This document shows positions 5,932-17,795 of a DNA stretch of 64,000 bases, piece by piece. Origin of the DNA: an archaeon. Lineage in GTDB: Archaea; Nanobdellota; Nanobdellia; Pacearchaeales; GW2011-AR1. The DNA lies in contig JABHSE010000004.1 of NCBI GenBank assembly GCA_018697035.1, forward strand, positions 259,300-323,299, in the 5' to 3' direction. The position numbers and the translations under genes were made by a program. The notes below the pieces were generated by a model. The model made no database searches. It was not told the DNA's origin and saw nothing but the letters and a program-made list of their open reading frames with translations. How positions within the stretch are numbered: position 1 is the first letter of the stretch; each line of letters opens with the position of its first letter.

Positions 5932-6603
5932 CTAAATAATCTCAACAATATCCCCAACGTTCTTCTTCAAAGAATAAAGCATAGGTGGCCTATGCGAAAC
6001 ATTTTTCCTCAAACCTTCCTCTTTCAAAATACCAAGCGAAATAATCTTCTTAGAAAAATTCCTCTTATCAAAGCTCTTATTGAAAACCATTTCATAAATC
6101 TTCTGCACTTCACTTATCGCAAACTTTTTCGGAAGCAATGAAAAAGCAACAGTCGTATACTCAAACTTCCACTTCAGCCTCTTCAAAGAATATTCCAATA
6201 TTTCCTTATGATCAAAGGCAAGTGAAGGAACATCCTTGATAGAAAACCACTTAGCATCAGAAACATCAGTAGCAGCTTTCAATTCTATACCCTCAGAGTT
6301 AACAAGAGCCATATATGCAACAGTAACGACCCTTCCCCTAGGATCCCTTTTGGGTTCCCCGAAACTAAACAATTGTTCAAGATAAACATCTCGCACCCCA
6401 GCCTCTTCCTCTAATTCCCTTTTAGCCGCATCCTCCAAAGACTCATCAATTCTAACAAAACCACCAGGAAACGCCCAGCCACCCTTAAATGGACTGATAT
6501 TCCGCTTCACCAAAAGAACCTTCAACTCACCACCTTCAATAGTAAAAATAACTATATCTGCAGTCAACGACGGCTTCTCAAAATCATGTATACTTTCTTC
6601 CAT
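5932..6603 (-). CDS. nrtR: Nudix-related transcriptional regulator NrtR (Nudix domain plus C-terminal winged helix)
   Basis: Nudix box GGWAFPGGFVRIDESLEDAAKRELEEEAGV, followed by a ~90-aa C-terminal wHTH-like domain. The gene sits at the end of the NAD cluster. Confidence 0.75.
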   Translation of the reverse strand: MEESIHDFEKPSLTADIVIFTIEGGELKVLLVKRNISPFKGGWAFPGGFVRIDESLEDAAKRELEEEAGVRDVYLEQLFSFGEPKRDPRGRVVTVAYMALVNSEGIELKAATDVSDAKWFSIKDVPSLAFDHKEILEYSLKRLKWKFEYTTVAFSLLPKKFAISEVQKIYEMVFNKSFDKRNFSKKIISLGILKEEGLRKNVSHRPPMLYSLKKNVGDIVEII

Positions 6604-6638
6604 AGTGTCAACAAAACAATAACATATTTAAATTTACC

Positions 6639-7418
6639 CTAAATACCCTCGATAGACTGCAACGGCTTATCAGACAATTTAACTTCGACAACATCTCCTC
6701 TGTTGAAATCATACGTCTTAAACCCTATTCCGATAATTCCACCATAATCTCGAGTAGATTCAAAAGAAATATTTTCATCAGATAAAATTTCACCCCTTAA
6801 AACTGTTGGAACGTAAATTCTTTTTCCAAGATATGTTTCTGTAATTACGAACCTAAGCTTTTTTTCATTTGCACCAAATTCGTCTCCGCCTATGGCATTA
6901 AACCAACCTGTAGAACCAGTACCCGTAGAAATAACAGCACCCGAACTTCTATGCTCTTCCCTTTTACCTCTATAATCAATGATATACCTAGAAGTATTCA
7001 ATCTCTTTTCGGCCCCAACATAAACTTCATTAGTAACAAGTTCATCCAAAACCTTATCATTCAATTTAACTTCCCCCCTCTGCCTCTCAATAACATTAAA
7101 TTTTCCACCCAGTATCTCTTCCAACTTTCCCCTCTCATTCATAGACAAACTCGCCAATGCCCCTTCACTAGAAGTCATGTCAGAATTTATTCCCAAAAGA
7201 TAAGAATCCCTTATTCGATTAGCAGCCTCTATATACGTACCATCACCACCAAGAGTTATTACCAAATCCGCACCGGAAAGCTTTTCCTTACTCAAATCAT
7301 CATACATAGTCCAACAAAAATCACGTCCACTCAAAACTTCTCTCAATCTCCGAGAACTTTCCAAGTGTTCGGAACTATCCTTATTACTTTCAACAACAAC
7401 AATCTTCTCAAACTCCAT
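6639..7418 (-). CDS. nadK: NAD kinase
   Basis: DLVITLGGDGT motif, the later TGSTGW motif, and typical length. Confidence 0.85.
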   Translation of the reverse strand: MEFEKIVVVESNKDSSEHLESSRRLREVLSGRDFCWTMYDDLSKEKLSGADLVITLGGDGTYIEAANRIRDSYLLGINSDMTSSEGALASLSMNERGKLEEILGGKFNVIERQRGEVKLNDKVLDELVTNEVYVGAEKRLNTSRYIIDYRGKREEHRSSGAVISTGTGSTGWFNAIGGDEFGANEKKLRFVITETYLGKRIYVPTVLRGEILSDENISFESTRDYGGIIGIGFKTYDFNRGDVVEVKLSDKPLQSIEGI

Positions 7419-8439
7419 TCTTCAACACTCCATCAACAAGATCTTTAACCTTCATAAATCTCTCGTTATAATTTCCAGCAACACTAACAAAATCAACACC
7501 GATACCTTCATACATATCCTTCAGCAACTTATTATTCTTCAATCTCTGCTCATCCGCACCAGCAAAACGCAACCCATCAGAAACCCACTTCACATCTGGC
7601 TCAAGAAATACTACCAAATCATAATTCTGCAATGCAGCAACCTCTTCAATCAACCTCGACTTATTCCCCGAAAAATACATGTCAAGATAATACTGAGTTA
7701 TAACAGCATCGCTGTCAACAAACAAAACCTTATCACTACTCCTAGCCTTCTTATCCTGCAAAATAAAATGCTCCATAGCAATTTTATCAAACATATCCAC
7801 AGTCAAAAGATTAGAATGCCTCTCACAATAATCCCTACCAATCTCATGAACATATTCAGTATTATAAAATTTAGCAAGCTTCTTACATAACGTCGTCTTC
7901 CCACAACTCTCAGTCCCAACAATTGCAACACTCTTAGTGAAATAAGGCTTAACACAATTAGGCAACTTATCCCAATTCCCGTAAAGATCTTTCCTTAATT
8001 CAGTCGCAGAAATCGTAACAGTTTTCCGCTTATCGTCCACAACGACATGTTTTGAATCAGGATAATATTTCTTAAACAATTCATCATATTCTGTTTCAGA
8101 ACTAAAAACATAATCAATCGGCTTGCCTATTTTTTCCTTAATCATATTAGCTCCTTCTTCCCAATCATAATCGTTATCCCAATGATCATCTTCAATATGA
8201 ATTATCTTTATATTATCTAAATCATTCAAAGACTCACCAATCCAGGAAAGCCTAACCTCAGCGGGAATATATTTCATTCCATCTTTTTCGCACAGCTCTC
8301 GATCCCGATTCTTAGAAGACGAAACAACAACATACAACTCATCAACATAATTAGAAGCAGCCATAATAACATACACATGACCCTGATGGAAGGGGAGAAA
8401 CTTCCCTCCTATAAATCCAACAGTTTTCCTACTTACCAC
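7408..8439 (-). CDS. nadR: NadR-type bifunctional NMN adenylyltransferase / ribosylnicotinamide kinase (no HTH domain)
   Basis: GGKFLPFHQGH nucleotidyltransferase motif plus a second P-loop GTESCGKTT. The start is probably the GTG at 8439, overlapping the pnuC stop by 11 nt. The track ORF extends to 8487. Confidence 0.8.
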   Translation of the reverse strand: MVSRKTVGFIGGKFLPFHQGHVYVIMAASNYVDELYVVVSSSKNRDRELCEKDGMKYIPAEVRLSWIGESLNDLDNIKIIHIEDDHWDNDYDWEEGANMIKEKIGKPIDYVFSSETEYDELFKKYYPDSKHVVVDDKRKTVTISATELRKDLYGNWDKLPNCVKPYFTKSVAIVGTESCGKTTLCKKLAKFYNTEYVHEIGRDYCERHSNLLTVDMFDKIAMEHFILQDKKARSSDKVLFVDSDAVITQYYLDMYFSGNKSRLIEEVAALQNYDLVVFLEPDVKWVSDGLRFAGADEQRLKNNKLLKDMYEGIGVDFVSVAGNYNERFMKVKDLVDGVLKNGV

Positions 8440-9127
8440 TATGCTTGCCCTCCAACTTTTTCCAGTTATAATAACCATACACCGCATTAACCAAAAACGC
8501 CGACCACATCACAAGTATACTAACATCTCCACCACTCGTAACGAAAATATAGGCCCACATCACGATAGAAAGCACGTTCACCATTATCCAGAAAAGCCAC
8601 TGCTCCGTCAATCTCTTATTCAGCATAATAGTAGCCACAATCGAAAAAACAGTCGTAGCCGAATCAATAAACGGCAAAGTCCCATTAATCACTTTCAACA
8701 CTAGCCCGTAAACAAGCAAAGCAATAATAGAACCTCCAAACCAAACAAGCCTATCTTTCCAACTCAAACTCTTCACAGCTATCTCGCTACCATTCCGCAT
8801 ATTCTTTTTCCAAAAATAGATACCAACAAAAGCCATCGGCAAGAAGTAAAGCATGTTCAACATAACATCTCCATAGTACCGACTCTGATACGCAACATAC
8901 GAATAGGCCAAAATATTAGCCAAGCCAAAATAAAAACTACTTATCCTCGCCTTCGCAGTCAAAACCACACACAACATCCCAGTCAAAGAAGCAGTCAATC
9001 CAATCCAACTATCTTGCCACGCAAAAAACAAATAAATATTAATCAACGTAAAAGACAAAAGCCAAACCTTTTCAAAAGTATTCCATTCTCCAATAAGACG
9101 AGCAATCTTATCTCTCAAGTCCCTCAT
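8429..9127 (-). CDS. pnuC: nicotinamide riboside transporter PnuC
   Basis: Seven-TM protein with a WQDSWIGL..LTAKARISSFYFGLANILAYSYVAY pattern typical of PnuC. Confidence 0.8.
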   Translation of the reverse strand: MRDLRDKIARLIGEWNTFEKVWLLSFTLINIYLFFAWQDSWIGLTASLTGMLCVVLTAKARISSFYFGLANILAYSYVAYQSRYYGDVMLNMLYFLPMAFVGIYFWKKNMRNGSEIAVKSLSWKDRLVWFGGSIIALLVYGLVLKVINGTLPFIDSATTVFSIVATIMLNKRLTEQWLFWIMVNVLSIVMWAYIFVTSGGDVSILVMWSAFLVNAVYGYYNWKKLEGKHSGK

Positions 9128-9549
9128 TTTACACCTCCCTTAAATTTAGTTATATAGTCCATCAATATCTTCTCATGATCAAAAGCCAACTCAGGCAAAT
9201 TGTCCATTGGAAAAAACCTCACATCCCTAGCATCATCCTTAGCCATAATCTCACCTCTAAAATTCCTAGCAACATAAGCACAAGTAACATAATGCCCCCT
9301 CGGATCTCTACCTGGTTCCGAATAAACTCCAATCAACTCCAAGTCAGAAACTTTCGCTCTCAGTCCCGTCTCTTCAAATAATTCCCTAACACCAGTCTCC
9401 TCAACTGTCTCATCACCATAATTAAGATGCCCGCCAGGAAAAGCCCACATATCCCTAAACGGCTCAATAGCTCTCTTTATCAAAAGCAACTCTTCCCTTC
9501 TTTCAATAATAATATCCGCAGTCACACAGGGGTTCAGATATTCACTCAT
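9124..9549 (-). CDS. Nudix hydrolase (ADP-ribose pyrophosphatase-like)
   Basis: Nudix box PGGHLNYGDETVEETGVRELFEETGL. The start is set at the internal ATG (MSEYLNP), which overlaps the nadD stop by 8 nt. Confidence 0.8.
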   Translation of the reverse strand: MSEYLNPCVTADIIIERREELLLIKRAIEPFRDMWAFPGGHLNYGDETVEETGVRELFEETGLRAKVSDLELIGVYSEPGRDPRGHYVTCAYVARNFRGEIMAKDDARDVRFFPMDNLPELAFDHEKILMDYITKFKGGVK

Positions 9550-10102
9550 GATAAAGTCCCTCCCTAAGTATATATTTCTCAACATCCTCATGAACCAATT
9601 CATAAATAGGCTTATCCGCAGCGACCCTTTCCCTTATCTCAGTAGAAGACGTCCCCAAAAGAGGCTTCTCATAAAATGTCATATCCCGAGAATCTTCCCT
9701 CACAGAATATCCCTTCCTCTCAAAAACCAAGAAATCAATCAACTCTCTTAATTTCGCACCATCTTTCCAACTAGGCAAATCAGACACAGCATCAGAACCC
9801 GCCATAAAATAAAAATCATGATCATATTTACTTTTCAACTTCCGAACAGTATCGATAGTATAATTAACACCCTCAGAATCCAATTCAGTACTATCAACCC
9901 TAACATGATCCATCCCCTTAATCGCATATTCAATCATCTTAACTCTATGCTTCGAATCCGAAAGATTTTTACCAAAAGCATGTCTCTTACACGGAATCAC
10001 CCAAACCTCATCTACAACCTTAGACTCCAGAGCATCACCAATAATCTTAGTATGAAAATTATGTATAGGATCAAAACTACCTCCAAAAATTCCCACCTTC
10101 AT
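9542..10102 (-). CDS. nadD: nicotinate/nicotinamide mononucleotide adenylyltransferase, NadD type
   Basis: GIFGGSFDPIHNFH (GxFxPxHxxH) motif, ~186 aa. Confidence 0.85.
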   Translation of the reverse strand: MKVGIFGGSFDPIHNFHTKIIGDALESKVVDEVWVIPCKRHAFGKNLSDSKHRVKMIEYAIKGMDHVRVDSTELDSEGVNYTIDTVRKLKSKYDHDFYFMAGSDAVSDLPSWKDGAKLRELIDFLVFERKGYSVREDSRDMTFYEKPLLGTSSTEIRERVAADKPIYELVHEDVEKYILREGLYHE

Positions 10103-10923
10103 TCTCGCACCCCATACAATAAACTAACTTTTCCGACCGAAGGAACCTTCCGCTTATGCTCTGTATTAGCATGCCTCATCACAACATCAGAAATGATTCT
10201 ATTATCAAATCCCGTAATCTCTTCGATTTGCGAAGCACTATATCCCTGATCAAAACCATTCTGAATCAACTCCGCCGCATCATAAGTATACCCAAGTTCA
10301 CCTTCATCAGTCTGACCTTCCCACAAGCCAGCAGTCGGAACCCTATTAACAAGATCTTCAGAAACACCCAAGTGCGCCGCAAGTTCCCGAACCAACCTCT
10401 TCGGAAGATTACCCAAAATATTATTATCCACCGCCGCATCCCCCCGCTTAGTACAATACCCCAAAACATAATCCTCGTCCCAGTTCCCAGTTCCCATAAC
10501 CCTATAATTCTTAGAAGCAGCAACCCTGCTCAAAACTACCGCTCTCAACTCAGAATATAAATTACCCCTATGAAACTCACTATCAATACCAGGAACTTGA
10601 CGAGCGAATATATCAGCAATAGGTTCAATCGGAACAACCACAGATTCAATTCCAAGATTCTTAGCAACTCTCAAACCATCCTCCTTATCTTCGTCACGAT
10701 TCGCATCCGATGGCATCACAATACCATAAAGTCCAAGTCCACTGCCCTCACGACCAAAAGCATAATCACACAAATAAGCAGTCGCAGTAGAATCAATACC
10801 ACCACTCAAACCAATAACACCACCATAAGCACCAGTCCCCTTAGTAAGCCGAATCACTTCATCCGCCAACTCATCAACAGCCCGCTCAACTCCATTTGCA
10901 AAATATGCCCGCTCTATTTTCAT
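10099..10923 (-). CDS. nadE: NH3-dependent NAD+ synthetase
   Basis: PP-loop GLSGGIDST. The ATG at 10923 overlaps the upstream stop as ATGA. Confidence 0.85.
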   Translation of the reverse strand: MKIERAYFANGVERAVDELADEVIRLTKGTGAYGGVIGLSGGIDSTATAYLCDYAFGREGSGLGLYGIVMPSDANRDEDKEDGLRVAKNLGIESVVVPIEPIADIFARQVPGIDSEFHRGNLYSELRAVVLSRVAASKNYRVMGTGNWDEDYVLGYCTKRGDAAVDNNILGNLPKRLVRELAAHLGVSEDLVNRVPTAGLWEGQTDEGELGYTYDAAELIQNGFDQGYSASQIEEITGFDNRIISDVVMRHANTEHKRKVPSVGKVSLLYGVRE

Positions 10924-11834
10924 TTTTCCTCCTCCAATAAATAGGGCGTTAAACAAAGCCTACAAAATTTATCTCCCCGCATAAACCCTTCAATCTTATC
11001 ACTAGTATTCGCAAGCAAAAAAACATCACTCACCTTCAAATTCAAACCATGATCCTCATTTATCTCACTAATTATTTTCTCCTGCATCAATTTATACTTA
11101 TCGTACAACTGCCTAGGCCTAATCCTATCAAGAACCCTATCAGTCACAACCAATGAAAAAATATTCTTAAACCACTTATTAGCAACTAACGTCTCAAGCG
11201 GCTTCCGAGTAAAAGTAAAACCCGATCTCAAATAATACATCCCAAAGGGTTTACTCATAGATGCAACAACCGCTACAATATTATCATTACTAACATCAAT
11301 CTCATACAATTCAGTCATCCCCAAATACGCCAAATCATAAACAACCTTATGACTCTCACAAATATCAGTAACAACCTCATTCCTTATCACATTACCATCA
11401 CGCCCAGAAGGATTCGATATAAAAAAATACCCTGGCTTCAACTTCGAAAAATCCTCATCTTCAGAAACCTCAACAATAGTAATACCAAGCCGACTAGCAT
11501 ATTCCTGATATCCCTCATACTCGCCCTCAAAAACATAAATCACCTCATCCGCATTCTTAGCCTTAATCTCAGCAAGCAAATGAAAAATCCCTTGCCGCGA
11601 CCCATCCGTAGAATATCTATATCCAAAATCTTTCAAAGCAGGGACATCCTCAGAATAATACTTCACAAACTTCTCAATAATCGGCTTATCAAAATCATCA
11701 AGACCCGGACTAATCGAACTCAAAAAAACATCATGTGGAAAATTCTCACAAACCTCGTCGATAACTTCCCGAACTTCAGGAAAATAATAACAATATACTC
11801 CCCGAATAGCTTTCATCTCATCCATATTCTTCAT
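10920..11834 (-). CDS. PLP-dependent aminotransferase-fold protein (class I/II-like), function unknown
   Basis: NPSGRDG (NPxNPTG-like) and the SMSKPFG lysine motif. Short for the family at 304 aa. Confidence 0.45.
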   Translation of the reverse strand: MKNMDEMKAIRGVYCYYFPEVREVIDEVCENFPHDVFLSSISPGLDDFDKPIIEKFVKYYSEDVPALKDFGYRYSTDGSRQGIFHLLAEIKAKNADEVIYVFEGEYEGYQEYASRLGITIVEVSEDEDFSKLKPGYFFISNPSGRDGNVIRNEVVTDICESHKVVYDLAYLGMTELYEIDVSNDNIVAVVASMSKPFGMYYLRSGFTFTRKPLETLVANKWFKNIFSLVVTDRVLDRIRPRQLYDKYKLMQEKIISEINEDHGLNLKVSDVFLLANTSDKIEGFMRGDKFCRLCLTPYLLEEEK

Positions 11835-12697
11835 ATCAAAATCGCTCCCTTATACTGCCAATCATATCTCAAATGTCCATCCGGAAAGAAAATAACCTGC
11901 CTCATATTATCCCTCTCCGGCTCAATGGTCAAAGCACTTGTCAAGCAAACATTCTGACCCTCCAAATCATAAACGGTCGCACCATGAGCAAGCGCCAACA
12001 GCTGATTACCATTTTCCTTAACAAACAGTTCAATCTCAGAATAATTTTCATCACCAATCATATTCTCCATAGTCCAATCGTAAACACTCTTACACTCAGA
12101 ACCCTGCGGAGCTGCCAACTTCCTAAGACTCAACTGCTCAACCCCCCACCCCTTAACTTTCTTAATCAAAGCCAAAGCCTCATCCTTACTGTCAACAAAA
12201 CCCTTAACCAAAGTGCAACTAATCCTAACGGTATACCCGATATCATGCAACTTAGCAATCAACTTTTCCAAATCAAAATACTCACCCTCTGGAGTAAAAA
12301 TCAACTTATTCTTATCTCTCTCATAATGGACAATAGAAATAGCAATCGTAGTCAATCCAAGATCATACCACTTCTTCAAATACTCATCACAATCATCCCC
12401 CGCGAGAACAATACCATTCGTCTGAATCTCAATAAAAGGAAACTCAAATCTTTCCAACTTATTCAAAAACTCACTAATTTGTTCAGGAAAAAGGGTGGGC
12501 TCACCCTTACCAGTTATAAGAACAGTACTAACATCATTCATTTTAGAAAAATTACAAGCCTTCTCAAAGTTCCTCCAATTAACAACCGGCTCTTCCAAAC
12601 CAATACCCTGCTTCGGAGTCATCCGCGAAACACAATAGGGACATCTAGCGTTACAAGCCGAACTCCCAGCAACAATCGTCAATGTTTGAATCTTCAT
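11831..12697 (-). CDS. radical SAM enzyme, function unknown
   Basis: CNARCPYC (CxxxCxxC) cluster near the N-terminus, then GKGEPTL and IQTNG motifs. Confidence 0.75.
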   Translation of the reverse strand: MKIQTLTIVAGSSACNARCPYCVSRMTPKQGIGLEEPVVNWRNFEKACNFSKMNDVSTVLITGKGEPTLFPEQISEFLNKLERFEFPFIEIQTNGIVLAGDDCDEYLKKWYDLGLTTIAISIVHYERDKNKLIFTPEGEYFDLEKLIAKLHDIGYTVRISCTLVKGFVDSKDEALALIKKVKGWGVEQLSLRKLAAPQGSECKSVYDWTMENMIGDENYSEIELFVKENGNQLLALAHGATVYDLEGQNVCLTSALTIEPERDNMRQVIFFPDGHLRYDWQYKGAILI

Positions 12698-13350
12698 ACC
12701 CTCCCCTCCAAAACATCTTTAGTCGTCACAAAGTTAACCCCAGCCTCTTCCCAATTTTTCAAAACCACTTTAGTCTCCAAAGGCGTACCAACCAAATGCG
12801 GCAAGTCCCTCATAGCATCCATAACCGCATAAACATTTCGCCCTTTCTTGACATTACCCATCACCGCAAAATTATCACAAACATTCAAGGCAACACCATA
12901 GAGCACAACATTCTCAGGATTCAAAATATCAATAGCCTCCGAAGTCAAAGAATTCCCGCTAAAAACATCAAACTCATATTTCTCAATAACAAGATTCCGA
13001 GCCTTCACTATCTTCTCAGCATCGACATTTTGAGCATCCCGAGTCAACCTATAAATATTATCCATAGGACGAGTCGCAGGAATATACTCAGCACCTTTAG
13101 TCCCAGCCATACAATGAGGAAAATATGTATCCACAAGATCCGGGTTCTCAGCATCAATCTCCTTATCCTCCAACCTATGCCAGTCCGCACTATTAACAAC
13201 ATAAATCCCATTCTGCTTGGCATACCCAGTCAACTTAGCTAAATTACCCTCTATCTCTCGAGCATCAGGCACAGGCAAAGTACCCCTAAAACTTTCGTCA
13301 TCTCGCATAAAATCATACTGAGTATCAACATTCCAAAAAATAGTTCTCAT
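12694..13350 (-). CDS. pncA: nicotinamidase (isochorismatase family)
   Basis: N-terminal VDTQYDF, the FPHCMAGTKGAE metal site, and the GVALNVC catalytic Cys. Confidence 0.8.
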   Translation of the reverse strand: MRTIFWNVDTQYDFMRDDESFRGTLPVPDAREIEGNLAKLTGYAKQNGIYVVNSADWHRLEDKEIDAENPDLVDTYFPHCMAGTKGAEYIPATRPMDNIYRLTRDAQNVDAEKIVKARNLVIEKYEFDVFSGNSLTSEAIDILNPENVVLYGVALNVCDNFAVMGNVKKGRNVYAVMDAMRDLPHLVGTPLETKVVLKNWEEAGVNFVTTKDVLEGRV

Positions 13351-14598
13351 CTAATACACGCACTCCTCCATAGCATATTTAGCATCATCATAATCGAATA
13401 TATCCTTAAATCTAGCAACATCTTCAAGACTACCCATAGTCTTAGCCGGATTGTCACTCAACTTAACAGTCCCATACCCATTAGATTCAACAGCCTTCAT
13501 AACAAGCGAAAGAGGCCTCAGTCCCAAGTCATTAGTAAGATTAGTCCCCCAACCAGCGACAACATTTATCCTATTCCCAAACTCATTCTGCAAGTCAGCA
13601 ATCTTCTCCACATTAAGCCCGTCACTCGGAACAAACAACTTAGTCTTCGGATCAATCCTATTTTTTTCATAAAACCCAATCTGCCTTCTAGCAAAAGCCG
13701 CAGGGTCCCCCGAATCTTGCCGAAGCCCCTTCCAATTACGAGCCTGCTCATAGCTCATATCGTCAAGAAAAAAATCAGATCCATAAGTATCAGTCAAAGC
13801 AATAGACAACCCAACCCCATACTCATCAAACCATTCCTCCAAAAACCTATTATGAGAAGCCTTTATGTCAAGATCACTATCATGATAAATCCCAGACATA
13901 ACCATATCCATCTCATGAGCATTCGTACCCATTGGCTCAAGCCCAAGCTTCATCGCCAAATAAACATTCGACGTACCGACAATTTGATTCGGAACTCTCG
14001 CCTTCAACTTTGAAACAACACCCTCTTGCCACTCCTGATCAAACCTCCGCCTAGTCCCAAATTCCATGAACCTCACATTAGGATTCTCCTCCAAAGTCTC
14101 AATCTTCCTTTCAAGATTATTAGCACCTTTTTCCATAATAACCCGAAGCTGATCAGAATCCATGTTCTGCATAAGACCACGATAATAAAGAGTATTAAAA
14201 GTCGCAAGAGCAGGCGTCTCCCAATATATCCCAGCTCCCCAAGGCCCATCAACTTCAAAATCAAATTCGCCATTCTTCACGGTCAAATTATAATCAGGAA
14301 GCACAATATTCTCTAAGAATCCAAGATAGTCATCCTTAAACAATTGTTCGCCATTATTTTTTAATCCCGCCAAATATGTTAACTCGTTACTAGTAGGCCT
14401 CGTATACTGAATCCTATCCAACTCCTGCCTCAACTTCCCTTCATCAACAACCGCCGGAAGACTAACATCCTTCGTCCTATTTTTGAACGCATACTTAACC
14501 GAAACATCATTATACCTATGAAAAGCAAATTGCCCCATGGTCAACTTATACATATCGGTATCAAGAAACGACTCTGTTGTTCGTGTTGTGTTTACCAT
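13351..14598 (-). CDS. pncB: nicotinate phosphoribosyltransferase
   Basis: LDTDMYKLTMGQ motif. The start is set at the ATG at 14598, 21 nt downstream of CTTTATATA. The track ORF adds 7 codons. Confidence 0.85.
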   Translation of the reverse strand: MVNTTRTTESFLDTDMYKLTMGQFAFHRYNDVSVKYAFKNRTKDVSLPAVVDEGKLRQELDRIQYTRPTSNELTYLAGLKNNGEQLFKDDYLGFLENIVLPDYNLTVKNGEFDFEVDGPWGAGIYWETPALATFNTLYYRGLMQNMDSDQLRVIMEKGANNLERKIETLEENPNVRFMEFGTRRRFDQEWQEGVVSKLKARVPNQIVGTSNVYLAMKLGLEPMGTNAHEMDMVMSGIYHDSDLDIKASHNRFLEEWFDEYGVGLSIALTDTYGSDFFLDDMSYEQARNWKGLRQDSGDPAAFARRQIGFYEKNRIDPKTKLFVPSDGLNVEKIADLQNEFGNRINVVAGWGTNLTNDLGLRPLSLVMKAVESNGYGTVKLSDNPAKTMGSLEDVARFKDIFDYDDAKYAMEECVY

Positions 14599-14602
14599 AA
14601 CA

Positions 14603-14621
14603 TAGTGTATAATATACACTA
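14603..14621. promoter_or_regulatory. perfect 9-1-9 palindrome TAGTGTATA-A-TATACACTA between the TATA box and the pncB ATG; candidate NrtR operator
   Basis: Read directly from the sequence. It lies between the TATA box (14621-14629) and the ATG (14598). Confidence 0.5.
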
Positions 14622-14723
14622 TATAAAGATTATGGCGATTGAGTATATGTATTATTTACACTAAGTATCATAAAAATCCAACAAATACAAACCCATAAAT
14701 ACCAATAAATTCAAAGAACAACA

Positions 14724-15612: not shown

Positions 15613-16182
15613 TTATAAGGAAGATATATCCCACCCAGAATTAACAAGGTGCTTAAACCAGTGTTTTTGGTGGAATTCTGGAAGTCCAACCAAATCAATC
15701 AACACAACAGAAATATTATTAGAGATGTAATCAAAACTTCCAGAAAACTTTAAATTAATCTTCCCATTATTATCTCTAATAACGTTCATTGTACCTCTTT
15801 CAAGAATAAATTCTCCAGAATTTTCTCGAGAAAGGTAATAATCGAGAACCTCTTTTTTAAAATGGAACCTTTGGAGATTATTACAAACATCATCTCCATT
15901 TTTTGACCACAAATCTGTAAATGGACCTTTTGGTCTTCCAGTTTTATCGGATTCTTTTCTTTCCAGTTTTTTTCTTATGGCCCTTTTTTTATTTTCTGTA
16001 TGGGTCTTTACCGCATGACAAATTGCACATAAGGCTTGTATATTATCTGGATCATTAGTTCCTCCATCCCATTTAGGCAAAATATGGTCAAAATGAGTTA
16101 TTTTGGGAGTCAATTCTCTTGGACAATCTGCACATTTATTATTTTGTCTTTCTAATATCTTATTTTTTGGTATTCCTGCCAT
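15613..16182 (-). CDS. HNH endonuclease
   Basis: CADCPRE..HFDHILPKWDGGTNDPDNIQALCAICH is an HNH motif. The ATG at 16182 lies 19 nt after TTTTTAAGG. Confidence 0.75.
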   Translation of the reverse strand: MAGIPKNKILERQNNKCADCPRELTPKITHFDHILPKWDGGTNDPDNIQALCAICHAVKTHTENKKRAIRKKLERKESDKTGRPKGPFTDLWSKNGDDVCNNLQRFHFKKEVLDYYLSRENSGEFILERGTMNVIRDNNGKINLKFSGSFDYISNNISVVLIDLVGLPEFHQKHWFKHLVNSGWDISSL

Positions 16183-16211
16183 AAAAAACCAGCGAATCAA
16201 ACCTTAAAAAT

Positions 16212-16853
16212 TTATCCCCAGGACTTTCCCCATTTCATCGGAGTTCCCATAGGTGTTTTGGGTTCAGAGAGATTCCTAACCATTTCATCAATATCTCCCT
16301 CTATCTCTGCCTGTTTCTTTTCTTCTTCAACATCAAAATCATCTCTTTCATCTTCTATATCATCATTACATTTCCAGCAAACACCTTCGAAATTATATTT
16401 ACTCGGACGAAACCATTTTTTCTTGCATCTAGGACATAAATTTCTACGATATTTTGATTTCACAAAATGGCATCTAAAGCATAAGGTCTGAACAAAATCA
16501 AAAGCATAATAATCTTTTAGTGCTAATTCTTTCGTCTTCTCTTTGAGTTCAGGATGATCTCGCATATAAGCCCCAAGTTTCCCAACCTTAATATAACCTT
16601 TAGAGGTAGAAAAACCTCCGCTCTTAGTTAATGCGCAAGGAGGGAATGTGAAATTCATTTCCTCGGACATAGAAATAATTGAAACTTTTCTAAAATTACG
16701 AAGCATATAGGCTTTAAAGGATATTTTATGGTGAGGCGTTAACTTATTTGTAGAACCGCACCATTCACACCTATCTTTTATCTTTCCATCTTCTAGCGCT
16801 AACTTTTTTGCCTCTTGGAATTCTTTTGTTTCCCACGGCTTTCTCTCCGTCAT
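16212..16853 (-). CDS. HNH-like zinc-finger nuclease domain protein
   Basis: CEWCGS..LTPHHK and CFRCH, plus extra CxxC pairs and an acidic tail. Its promoter is paralogous to that of 15613-16182. Confidence 0.6.
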   Translation of the reverse strand: MTERKPWETKEFQEAKKLALEDGKIKDRCEWCGSTNKLTPHHKISFKAYMLRNFRKVSIISMSEEMNFTFPPCALTKSGGFSTSKGYIKVGKLGAYMRDHPELKEKTKELALKDYYAFDFVQTLCFRCHFVKSKYRRNLCPRCKKKWFRPSKYNFEGVCWKCNDDIEDERDDFDVEEEKKQAEIEGDIDEMVRNLSEPKTPMGTPMKWGKSWG

Positions 16854-16953
16854 AAAAAATCCACTCAATCAATCCTTAAATATCTGCTGAATCCCGCTAA
16901 AAAATTATTAAAGAGTTTTATTTCTCTCCCACCCTATGTCGTGGGCAAGCGAA

Positions 16954-16995
16954 GCGAAGGTTATCCCTATGGGAAACAGGGCTGTTCAAGAGGGG
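16954..16995. repeat. right copy of the ~40-nt direct repeat, abutting the tRNA-Tyr 3' end
   Basis: See 15489-15529. It ends 5 nt from the tRNA-Tyr discriminator base. Confidence 0.5.
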
Positions 16996-16999
16996 TTAA

Positions 17000-17070
17000 T
17001 CCCCCCACCCTGAATCGAACAGGGCCACAGCGGGCTACAACCGCCTGCTCTACCGATGAGCTATAGGGGG
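17000..17070 (-). tRNA. tRNA-Tyr: tRNA-Tyr (anticodon GTA)
   Basis: Hand fold: acceptor CCCCCTA/TGGGGGG with C1-G72, D arm GCTC-ATCGGTA-GAGC, anticodon arm GGCGG-TTGTAGC-CCGCT, T arm CCCTG-TTCGATT-CAGGG. No encoded CCA. TATA box ~25 nt upstream. Confidence 0.85.
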
Positions 17071-17116
17071 ACAAAAACAAAACTCTGAATAGCTTTATAA
17101 ATTTTTAGATAAGATG

Positions 17117-17250
17117 TCGGGGAACCCTGAATCGAACAGGACCACAGAAAGGGTTACCGAACACCTTGCTCGAATTTTTCCCAACGAAGTGATTAGAAAA
17201 ATTTTAGAGTAAAGTGTGAGTACGTTTGCTCTGCCATAAATTATAGGGGG
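17117..17250 (-). pseudogene. tRNA-Tyr-derived chimeric or degenerate element with a duplicated promoter
   Basis: It has the same promoter, the 5' acceptor CCCCCTATA and a near-identical T arm. The anticodon region is replaced by ~80 unrelated nt, and the 3' acceptor TTCCCCG cannot pair with the 5' end. Confidence 0.45.
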
Positions 17251-17291
17251 ACAAATACAAAACCTCTAGAAGCTTTATAAATTTTTAGATA

Positions 17292-17795
17292 TCATTTCCC
17301 AGCCCGCAAAACAATCCGCTTAATCGCCTTCATCCCCTCAGCACTAAACTCCGAAACAACAACCCCGAATAAAACCTCGTCCTCATCCTCCGCATGTTTC
17401 CTCAAAACATCAACAAACACCCTCATATCCTTAACCAAAGCCTCACGAACCCTCGCATCACTACCCGAATTAATAGCATCACCAATCTTCTTGACATGCC
17501 CCCTCAAATCCCTATGCTCAAGAAAAATCGTCTCAATCGGAATCGCAAAACCCTCAGCCTTCATCACCTCAAAAAGCTCCTCCTCCATCTTCTCATGCGC
17601 GGTCCAAAGCTCACCAACCTTCCAAAAAGTGTGCACTAAGTTAGAATAATTAATATTGCCGACCTCGTCCACTTCAGTGGATGCCATCTGGGCAGAAGGC
17701 ACACCCTTGGGTACCTCCTTCATAATAAAATCTAACTCTGACAATTCCATCTCGATAGCCTTATGTTCATCTCTCAATATCTTAACCGGATTCAT
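17292..17795 (-). CDS. hemerythrin-like (HHE cation-binding) domain protein carrying an in-frame repeat insertion
   Basis: RDEHKAIE, HEKMEEELF, LEHRDLRGH and HAEDEDEVLF are hemerythrin-like His/Glu motifs. Confidence 0.65.
   Translation of the reverse strand: MNPVKILRDEHKAIEMELSELDFIMKEVPKGVPSAQMASTEVDEVGNINYSNLVHTFWKVGELWTAHEKMEEELFEVMKAEGFAIPIETIFLEHRDLRGHVKKIGDAINSGSDARVREALVKDMRVFVDVLRKHAEDEDEVLFGVVVSEFSAEGMKAIKRIVLRAGK
17658..17716 (-). repeat. in-frame ~57-nt repeat element, copy H (encodes PKGVPSAQMASTEVDEVG)
   Basis: About 49 of 57 nt match 33093-33149 by hand alignment. Confidence 0.7.

Follow-up and report, generated by a model that had tools for sequence, protein, structure and literature searches.

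A likely NrtR-controlled NAD(P) salvage operon, remodelled from old bacterial-type parts, in a small-genome DPANN archaeon

Introduction

How does a small-genome archaeon come to keep a compact gene cluster for nicotinamide adenine dinucleotide (NAD) metabolism that is built largely from bacterial-type parts, what does that cluster make, and how is it controlled? The question is raised by a 64,000-nucleotide (nt) stretch of DNA (the window; G000:C3:259300-323299, G000 being our handle for the source genome), which carries eleven minus-strand open reading frames (ORFs) between positions 5932 and 14598: pncB, pncA, a radical S-adenosylmethionine (SAM) gene, a pyridoxal phosphate (PLP)-fold gene, nadE, nadD, a Nudix gene, pnuC, nadR, a divergent nadK and nrtR. 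We consider it likely that this locus is an NrtR-controlled NAD(P) salvage operon of a small-genome DPANN archaeon, made from parts that came long ago from bacteria resembling those of the candidate phyla radiation (CPR) and that were later remodelled. A second proposal is put forward tentatively, with some doubt on our side: the radical SAM enzyme, often accompanied by the PLP enzyme, may catalyse an undescribed pyridine-nucleotide step, while in parallel a bacterial NrtR may have been wired onto archaeal TATA promoters.

The source assembly comprises 808,832 bp in four contigs, is 83.9% complete and yielded no rRNA. The setting of the locus is archaeal, with TFIIE-alpha, TruD, an archaeal-type glutamyl-tRNA synthetase and TATA promoters nearby, and those window homologues that carry names come from Nanoarchaeota, Pacearchaeota or Woesearchaeota. 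The host is a small-genome DPANN archaeon of the Pacearchaeota/Nanoarchaeota type; members of DPANN are believed to depend on other organisms as hosts.

Gene content and predicted NAD(P) routes

Gene identities were assigned from Pfam and NCBIfam profile matches, several of them backed by matches to solved structures. From its upstream end, the cluster consists of the following genes.

13351..14598, minus strand: pncB, nicotinate phosphoribosyltransferase (NAPRTase), 415 aa (NF003704 406 bits, cut-off 379; TIGR01514 320 bits)
12694..13350, minus strand: pncA, nicotinamidase, 218 aa (PF00857, isochorismatase fold)
11831..12697, minus strand: radical SAM enzyme, 288 aa, MoaA/viperin-like fold (PF04055, CNARCPYC motif)
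10920..11834, minus strand: short fold-type I PLP enzyme, 304 aa, HisC/CobD-like (PF00155, SMSK lysine motif)
10099..10923, minus strand: nadE, NH3-dependent NAD synthetase, 274 aa from ATG 10923 (TIGR00552 172 bits, cut-off 64)
9542..10102, minus strand: nadD, nicotinate-mononucleotide adenylyltransferase, 186 aa (NF000840 152.7 bits, cut-off 150)
9124..9549, minus strand: Nudix hydrolase, ADP-ribose pyrophosphatase-like, 141 aa from ATG 9549 (PF00293)
8429..9127, minus strand: pnuC, nicotinamide riboside transporter, 232 aa (TIGR01528 144 bits, cut-off 42)
7408..8487, minus strand: nadR, nicotinamide mononucleotide (NMN) adenylyltransferase (NMNAT) plus ribosylnicotinamide kinase (RNK) (NF005988 238 bits, cut-off 201)
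6639..7418, minus strand: divergent NAD kinase-like gene, 259 aa (weak matches plus GGDGT and TGTGSTGW motifs)
5932..6603, minus strand: nrtR, Nudix-related transcriptional regulator, 223 aa (PF00293 82.4 bits; PF21906 NrtR_WHD 68.5 bits, cut-off 27)

The profiles support each identity given in the initial annotation, with one change of boundary: pncB had been begun at GTG 14619, and its start is most likely ATG 14598, with an operator lying between the two. PncB has the invariant GT-AHE histidine, and the catalytic Asp, Lys and Cys of PncA, together with its DWH/HC metal-binding motifs, align to the P. horikoshii nicotinamidase 1IM5. NadE is single-domain, has an SGGIDS PP-loop and a start codon backed by the locus of the closest relative (L107, described below), and finds its best solved match in 2E18, which we take to be a Pyrococcus enzyme; going by that match, it looks like the one cluster part of archaeal appearance. 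The best solved match of NadD is 1KAM, and the nearest matches of the cluster Nudix protein are the Nudix domains found in NadM-Nudix and NrtR. NadR, which may start at GTG 8439 or at ATG 8478 or 8487, has the NMNAT and RNK parts without a helix-turn-helix (HTH) domain, as NF005988 was matched at model positions 62-408 alone. TIGR01526 scored 245 bits, under its cut-off of 341. NadR carries the motifs GGKFLPFHQGH and GTESCGKTT and matches the solved NadR structures 9X6F, 8X7F and 1LW7. In the NadK-like protein the GGDGT, NEV and TGTGSTGW motifs align to the solved structures of human NADK2 and T. maritima NadK, and orthologues are found in L107 (70% identity) and in the DPANN locus L027 (49%). 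NrtR joins an N-terminal Nudix domain to a C-terminal winged-helix domain.

Pathway roles follow from family membership. PnuC would admit nicotinamide riboside, which NadR would trap as NMN and then adenylylate to NAD, while PncA would deamidate nicotinamide for PncB, NadD and NadE to carry along the Preiss-Handler route to the same product. The NadK-like enzyme would make NADP, and the cluster Nudix enzyme would split ADP-ribose. Both routes are represented in full: PncA, PncB, NadD and NadE are all present with catalytic residues intact, and the PnuC-NadR set comprises the transporter and a NadR with both enzymatic domains. Profile searches of the 84%-complete genome found no match to NadA, NadB or NadC/quinolinate phosphoribosyltransferase (QRPTase), none to NadM beyond a weak one that is NadR itself, and no second gene of the NAPRTase/NadV families. 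Because NadA, QRPTase, NadB and NadM were not found, dependence on salvage is supported within that completeness. The proposal that the organism relies on scavenged pyridines and has no nadA, nadB, nadC or nadM elsewhere in its genome thus stands at this level of completeness; of the joint label 'salvage/recycling' that came with it, scavenging holds, and recycling is the weaker half for a reason given below.

Promoters and predicted NrtR operators

The cluster contains two intergenic TATA-like motifs only, one for each predicted promoter. The regulatory features are as follows.

14621..14627, minus strand: pncB promoter, TATA-like box TTTATAT, 29 nt ahead of the ATG
14602..14622, no strand assigned: operator O1, ATAGTGTATATTATACACTAT, 21 bp long and perfectly palindromic, core GT-N7-AC, in the interval from the TATA box to the pncB ATG
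14644..14664, minus strand: candidate auxiliary NrtR site O2, TTAGTGTAAATAATACATATA, sharing a TGTA-N5-TACA core with O1, which lies 42 nt downstream of it across the TATA box
6602..6632, minus strand: nrtR promoter, with TATA box TTTAAATA at 6625-6632 and a weaker NrtR-type site TTATTGTTTTGTTGACACTAT at 6602-6622

In the operator passages of Rodionov et al. 2008 (PMC2330246), the rule for bacterial NrtR sites is a 21-bp palindrome with a GT-N7-AC core, and O1 was counted as fitting an NrtR operator because it is a perfect palindrome of that length and core. O1 is the sole strict copy in the 809-kb genome. A 21-mer identical to it stands ahead of the first cluster gene in the related loci L002/L003, and O1-like sites lie upstream of the NAD clusters of L007, L107, L004 and L026, the last two having two copies each, so that they too show tandem sites. 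O2 falls within a block that is ~86-90% identical at the nucleotide level to L107, with flanks at ~45%. At the other promoter, the presence of a separate TATA box for nrtR agrees with what had been noted before, and TTATTGTTTTGTTGACACTAT abuts the nrtR ATG, its right arm (ACACTAT) being identical to that of O1. Sites of the form TTATTGT-N7-ACA are found ahead of nrtR in L002/L003 and L026, and partly in L107.

The pncB transcript is probably leaderless. NrtR would bind O1, whose 21 bp overlap both the TATA box and the transcription start of the pncB promoter, and probably also the upstream partner site and the weaker site on its own promoter. By covering the TATA box and start site at both promoters, it would block the archaeal basal machinery until an NAD-derived effector released it. 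The effector of bacterial NrtR is ADP-ribose.

The Nudix box of NrtR is complete, GGFVRIDESLEDAAKRELEEEAGV fitting the pattern GX5EX7REUXEEXGU. NrtR may hydrolyse its effector in addition to sensing it.

The radical SAM and PLP genes

Neither the radical SAM protein nor the PLP protein can be named from its closest structural relatives. The AlphaFold2 model of the radical SAM protein (pLDDT 90.6) has MoaA (TM 0.69) and viperin (TM 0.68) as its top Foldseek matches, and it shares with MoaA (GTP 3',8-cyclase) and viperin (CTP dehydratase) a fold, a CxxxCxxC motif and a similar size. It differs from them in that solved structures are matched at a remote 15-18% identity, in that scores lie far under the model cut-offs (TIGR02666 48 bits against 284, NF038283 28 bits against 180; it is an equivalog of neither), and in that its neighbours are NAD salvage genes rather than those of molybdopterin synthesis or antiviral defence. 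MoaA and viperin both act on nucleotides. For the PLP protein (model pLDDT 93.7), HisC and CobD are the top structural matches and are likewise remote in sequence, and it is an equivalog of neither (TIGR01140 31 bits against 290, TIGR01141 29 bits against 277). Its K195, D167, N141 and R203, corresponding to the PLP lysine and the Asp, Asn and Arg ligands, are invariant across 41 homologues.

Gene linkage is what ties the two to NAD. The radical SAM gene is found within DPANN NAD clusters of many differing gene orders, and a homologue of 51% identity sits in a Saccharibacteria NAD locus (L051). A profile search gave 435 clusters at E <= 1e-30. In a phylum sample of 300 genomes, all of the same class and with G000 excluded from marker counts, six of the nine strong radical SAM matches lie within 12 kb of nrtR. 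Homologues also occur on at least 43 IMG/VR loci, ~11 of them beside pncB, nadD or nadE, while on other viral loci the gene stands alone among phage genes. On this linkage the pair appear to be conserved members of the NAD module. Our best guess, from linkage and fold together, is a nucleotide-directed radical step tied to nicotinate-nucleotide metabolism; one possibility for the chemistry is a radical step that attacks a nicotinate or nicotinamide nucleotide, or ADP-ribose, at the ribose or at the base, with a transamination after it. An undescribed NAD step of this kind would explain why the radical SAM gene travels with PncB, NadD and NadE in DPANN, CPR and large phage-like contigs.

The pair might instead be passengers that are merely co-transcribed and whose job lies outside NAD metabolism, for example in nucleotide-sugar, tRNA or cofactor modification, and we treat this as a serious if somewhat doubtful possibility. 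The NAD route is complete on paper without the two proteins, most viral contigs show no detectable NAD neighbour of the radical SAM gene, and in CPR Collierbacteria (L108:7129-8951) the two genes have no NAD genes near them and are flanked by an MTTB gene and by the rpsL/rpsG-rpoBC region, in the company of small unannotated and toxin-antitoxin-like genes and of ribosomal and RNA-polymerase operons. Against this, the radical SAM gene stays in NAD clusters across the gene orders of DPANN, of Saccharibacteria and of phage-like contigs, most of the strong matches in the phylum sample lie close to nrtR as counted above, and in the window there are 4-nt overlaps on both sides of the pair.

Coupling of the ten packed genes

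With start codons chosen to agree with homologues, the junctions from pncB to nadK measure, in order, 0, -4, -4, -4, -4, -8, -4, -11 and -11 nt (negative values being overlaps), and there is no intergenic space anywhere along these ten genes. The nadK-nrtR spacer is 35 nt and contains TTTAAATA. This spacing, together with the layout of the promoters, would favour one primary transcript running from pncB to nadK. The earlier description of tight minus-strand coupling, with 0-nt gaps or overlaps of 4-11 nt, is in agreement with these measurements.

It is unlikely, in our view, that internal promoters or terminators split the ten packed genes into several transcripts. TATA-like motifs do occur inside nadE (10561) and nadR (7868), the cluster holds nine runs of at least six T on the coding strand, and pnuC-nadR, as a later insert, may retain signals of its own. 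Set against these are the absence of intergenic space from pncB to nadK, the abundance of such T runs on this strand (196 in the window) and the restriction of NrtR-type operators to the two intergenic promoters.

Closest relative, mosaic structure and origin

The closest relative found is GCA_023133415.1 (genome G487, locus L107), whose alanyl-tRNA synthetase is 74% identical to that of the window genome, as against 66% for the congener G085, and whose DEAD helicase is 75% identical. Its gene order is NAPRTase, pncA, radical SAM, PLP, nadE, nadD, Nudix, nadK and nrtR, and from pncA to nrtR the protein identities to the window are, in order, 70, 75, 83, 70, 61, 67, 70 and 79%. With the congeners, DNA-level synteny is too diverged to follow, and scattered pieces alone align.

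Two differences from this relative stand out. First, the leading gene of L107 encodes a NAPRTase of the PRK08662 type, which shows no detectable similarity to PncB even though its first seven residues (MVNTTQT) are nearly equal to those of the window PncB (MVNTTRT). The conserved block introduced above spans ~91 nt, running from O2 through the TATA box and O1 to the ATG and the seven or eight codons that open the reading frame; the figure of ~45% identity applies to 100 nt of flank on each side. Neither NadR nor PncB was found anywhere in G487. The comparison points to an in-place non-orthologous displacement of the first gene, in one direction or the other, with a junction ~25 nt into the reading frame. 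Second, L107 has no pnuC-nadR, which in the window lies between the Nudix gene and nadK. The window pnuC and nadR are closest to the DPANN loci L027 and L028 (64-74%), and the window pncB to P0122 and P0124 (71-72%). Since in this relative the shared promoter is followed by a non-orthologous NAPRTase and pnuC-nadR is missing, the operon reads as a mosaic and not as one imported block. We would suggest a core, made up of pncA to nadD, Nudix, nadK and nrtR, inherited from a common ancestor with GCA_023133415.1 and later remodelling, which left a canonical pncB here as against the relative's NAPRTase and pnuC-nadR between the Nudix gene and nadK.

Another relative, L003, shows synteny with C3:61-76 kb and carries a differently composed NAD cluster between SpoIIM and Nre (L003:6229-12084). 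At the corresponding junction in G000 (C3:69371-69689), SpoIIM and Nre are neighbours, with a ~90-aa ORF only and no cluster remnant. Taken together, the differing NAPRTase and pnuC-nadR and the SpoIIM-Nre site of L003 suggest that the module is rebuilt gene by gene and changes place.

The radical SAM, PncB and PLP proteins each have homologues by the hundred, of which the closest that bear a source name belong to archaea, chiefly DPANN (Nanoarchaeota, Pacearchaeota). When PncB was compared at one genome per species, the top relatives were three DPANN archaea at 55-61% identity, with CPR and other bacteria at 54% or below. In the PncB tree the window falls in a 19-row clade (SH-aLRT 98) in which four rows have archaeal names; the sister of this DPANN clade is a CPR Sungiibacteriota sequence (95), and the two together are embedded among sequences of a radiation made up of CPR, Acidobacteria and Proteobacteria. 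In the NrtR tree one change between archaea and bacteria suffices (93/95): six to seven DPANN NrtRs group with 89-93% support beside CPR and other bacteria, with the DPANN row L007 unresolved. In the radical SAM tree the window and L107 pair (100) within a clade of the same family and order (97). Among a named control set of 14 genomes used for the profile searches, comprising bacteria and four archaea, NadR and NrtR_WHD were matched in bacteria only, and NadM scored over its cut-off in all four archaea. The control genomes and both trees show PncB, NadD, NadR, PnuC and NrtR to be bacterial-type families, the last four of which had been singled out as such before. Because the genes sit in DPANN-specific clades, the transfer between domains was probably old. 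The bacterial-type parts would have entered DPANN long ago from CPR-like bacteria, and within DPANN the operon would now be a rare accessory module.

The composition of the cluster fits long residence. In G000 the strand skew is extreme and extends over whole contigs, its sign being constant within each: C1 has a GC skew of +0.40 and C2-C4 have values of -0.30 to -0.39, while AT skew takes the opposite sign. The skew of the cluster, -0.46, equals that of the other minus-strand genes of the genome, as its earlier description as native had it, whereas L107, L003 and the congener G085 are without such extreme skew, which is a trait of G000's lineage. Because the cluster shares a skew absent from these relatives, it was resident while the skew built up.

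Could the cluster have been brought in by a virus or an integrative element, as an auxiliary NAD module inserted beside tRNA-Tyr? We think this very unlikely. Two HNH nuclease genes and a tRNA-Tyr with a pseudo-copy (region 15613-17293) lie 1-2.5 kb from the pncB promoter, radical SAM homologues are found on viral loci beside NAD genes as counted above, and relatives have the cluster at another site (SpoIIM-Nre). Yet no repeat of the tRNA 3' end is present on the cluster side, the flanks lack an integrase or phage hallmark gene (the HNH genes alone match PHROGs), the composition is native, L107 has the orthologous cluster without these flanks, and the SpoIIM-Nre junction of G000 holds no remnant.

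An island bounded by tRNA-Tyr was considered separately and rejected, there being no att-like repeat on the cluster side and no flanking phage hallmark genes. The tRNA-Tyr itself spans 16999-17071, and immediately upstream (17124-17298) is a partial copy that takes in its promoter, 5' end and T arm.

That the whole eleven-gene module was taken up at once from a bacterium, by this organism or a recent ancestor, is extremely improbable. In its favour, most parts belong to bacterial-type families, the radical SAM cluster marker was found in none of 14 congeneric species representatives, and NadR, PncB and NrtR were found in none of 13 family genomes. Against it, the nearest homologues of every gene are DPANN (61-83%, bacterial ones reaching 54% at most), PncB and NrtR fall in DPANN clades, the core is colinear with that of the nearest relative at housekeeping-level identity, pncB and pnuC-nadR have other nearest neighbours than the core, and composition is wholly host-like, though the host skew is itself lineage-specific. 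The initial annotation had proposed acquisition of the entire module by horizontal transfer, and it is this claim that the DPANN-specific clades, the core colinear with L107 and the separate histories of pncB and pnuC-nadR do not support; the phylogenetic check it called for, run here for PncB and NrtR, bears out the bacterial affinity and speaks against a recent single import.

Several observations weigh against an NrtR-controlled salvage operon of old bacterial parts and should be set beside it. The trees are unrooted, and 'nested in bacteria' presupposes that the root does not fall on the short stem of the DPANN clade. NadK was called from matches under threshold (PF01513 24.8 bits against 25.5; best NCBIfam model 44 bits against 260, ~1e-11), and PF20143 gave no match, so that a PF20143 survey of NadK across the genus misses G000's own gene. 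No PRPP (phosphoribosyl pyrophosphate) synthetase candidate was found with TIGR01251 in the 84%-complete genome, where all 14 controls matched, which leaves the co-substrate of PncB without a visible source. The nicotinamide-releasing NAD consumers Sir2, Tpt1 and LigA were searched for in G000 and none was found, and because no such known consumer was found, 'recycling' is a weaker description than 'scavenging'. The nine T runs could end some archaeal transcripts. Finally, we know of no binding or effector data for any archaeal NrtR.

Distribution among relatives

Counts in the phylum sample were as follows.

NrtR_WHD: 43/300 genomes
NadM-like: 83/300 genomes
PF04095 NAPRTase: 12/300 genomes
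full-length NadR: 3/300 genomes
strong radical SAM homologue: ~9/300 genomes

Among the 13 family genomes of this sample, NrtR, NadR, PncB and the radical SAM gene were each found in none. An order sample of 200 genomes (155 of the family, 45 others, with 14 congeners) gave the radical SAM marker in nine, six within the family and three among the others, and in no congener. The grouping of radical SAM copies from the same order fits either an old presence followed by much loss or exchange among close kin.

Extra passengers in other DPANN NAD clusters, on the P0124 contig and at L004:14599-15447, include an ADP-ribosylglycohydrolase, a nucleoside 2-deoxyribosyltransferase-like protein, a second Nudix protein and a 541-aa methyltransferase. 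At L026:17728-20186 a form III-type RuBisCO large subunit and a phosphoribulokinase lie between the NAD genes and nrtR, a layout that hints at AMP/ribose-bisphosphate recycling in the same regulon.

Comparison with known systems

Bacterial NrtR regulons of NAD metabolism have been described by Rodionov et al. 2008 (PMC2330246) and for MsNrtR (PMC6800001). Measured against the passages of PMC2330246 on the operator and on archaea, the window locus shares a Nudix plus winged-helix regulator, a 21-bp GT-N7-AC palindrome ahead of pncA/pncB, nadD/nadE and pnuC/nadR-type genes, and a second site on the regulator's own promoter. It differs in having an archaeal host, the members described in those passages being all bacterial, and in the presence of a radical SAM and a PLP enzyme, neither of which appears there. 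Unlike the bacterial regulons, moreover, the operators here are arranged around a TATA box and a predicted leaderless start and not around a sigma-70 promoter, and the regulator has an intact Nudix box. On this comparison the locus appears to be an NrtR regulon transplanted into archaea. Within the library searched, our literature search for DPANN or CPR NAD operons, archaeal NrtR and radical SAM genes adjoining pncB found nothing relevant.

With the bacterial PnuC-NadR and Preiss-Handler routes the locus has in common the same enzyme families, mostly above curated cut-offs and with catalytic motifs intact. It departs from them in a NadR without the enterobacterial HTH, in the gathering of all steps plus NadK and an ADP-ribose-type Nudix enzyme into one unit, and in the lack of a detected PRPP synthetase or de novo route in G000. 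Relative to archaeal NAD synthesis of the NadM type, the locus would lead to the same end product and has a NadE of a type seen in archaea, but no NadM was found here, and NadD and NadR would carry out adenylyl transfer instead.

The locus is of interest on several counts. A regulated operon for importing and rebuilding NAD would show which vitamin currency this lineage takes, in a setting where most sampled relatives are without these genes. It would also offer a clean natural example in which archaeal promoters are under a repressor family from bacteria, reduced to one protein and a 21-bp site. Comparison with the closest relative shows the rebuilding of an operon at base-pair resolution, the promoter and first codons staying as they were while the enzyme after them was apparently swapped. 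Lastly, the radical SAM/PLP pair is conserved and gives a concrete lead to NAD-related chemistry that may so far be undescribed.

One further feature of the contig lies outside the window. Over ~60 kb at G000:C3:120000-180000, GC skew is 0.03-0.08 as against ~-0.35 elsewhere on the contig, and this near-zero-skew stretch may be an island, a mix of inversions or an assembly join.

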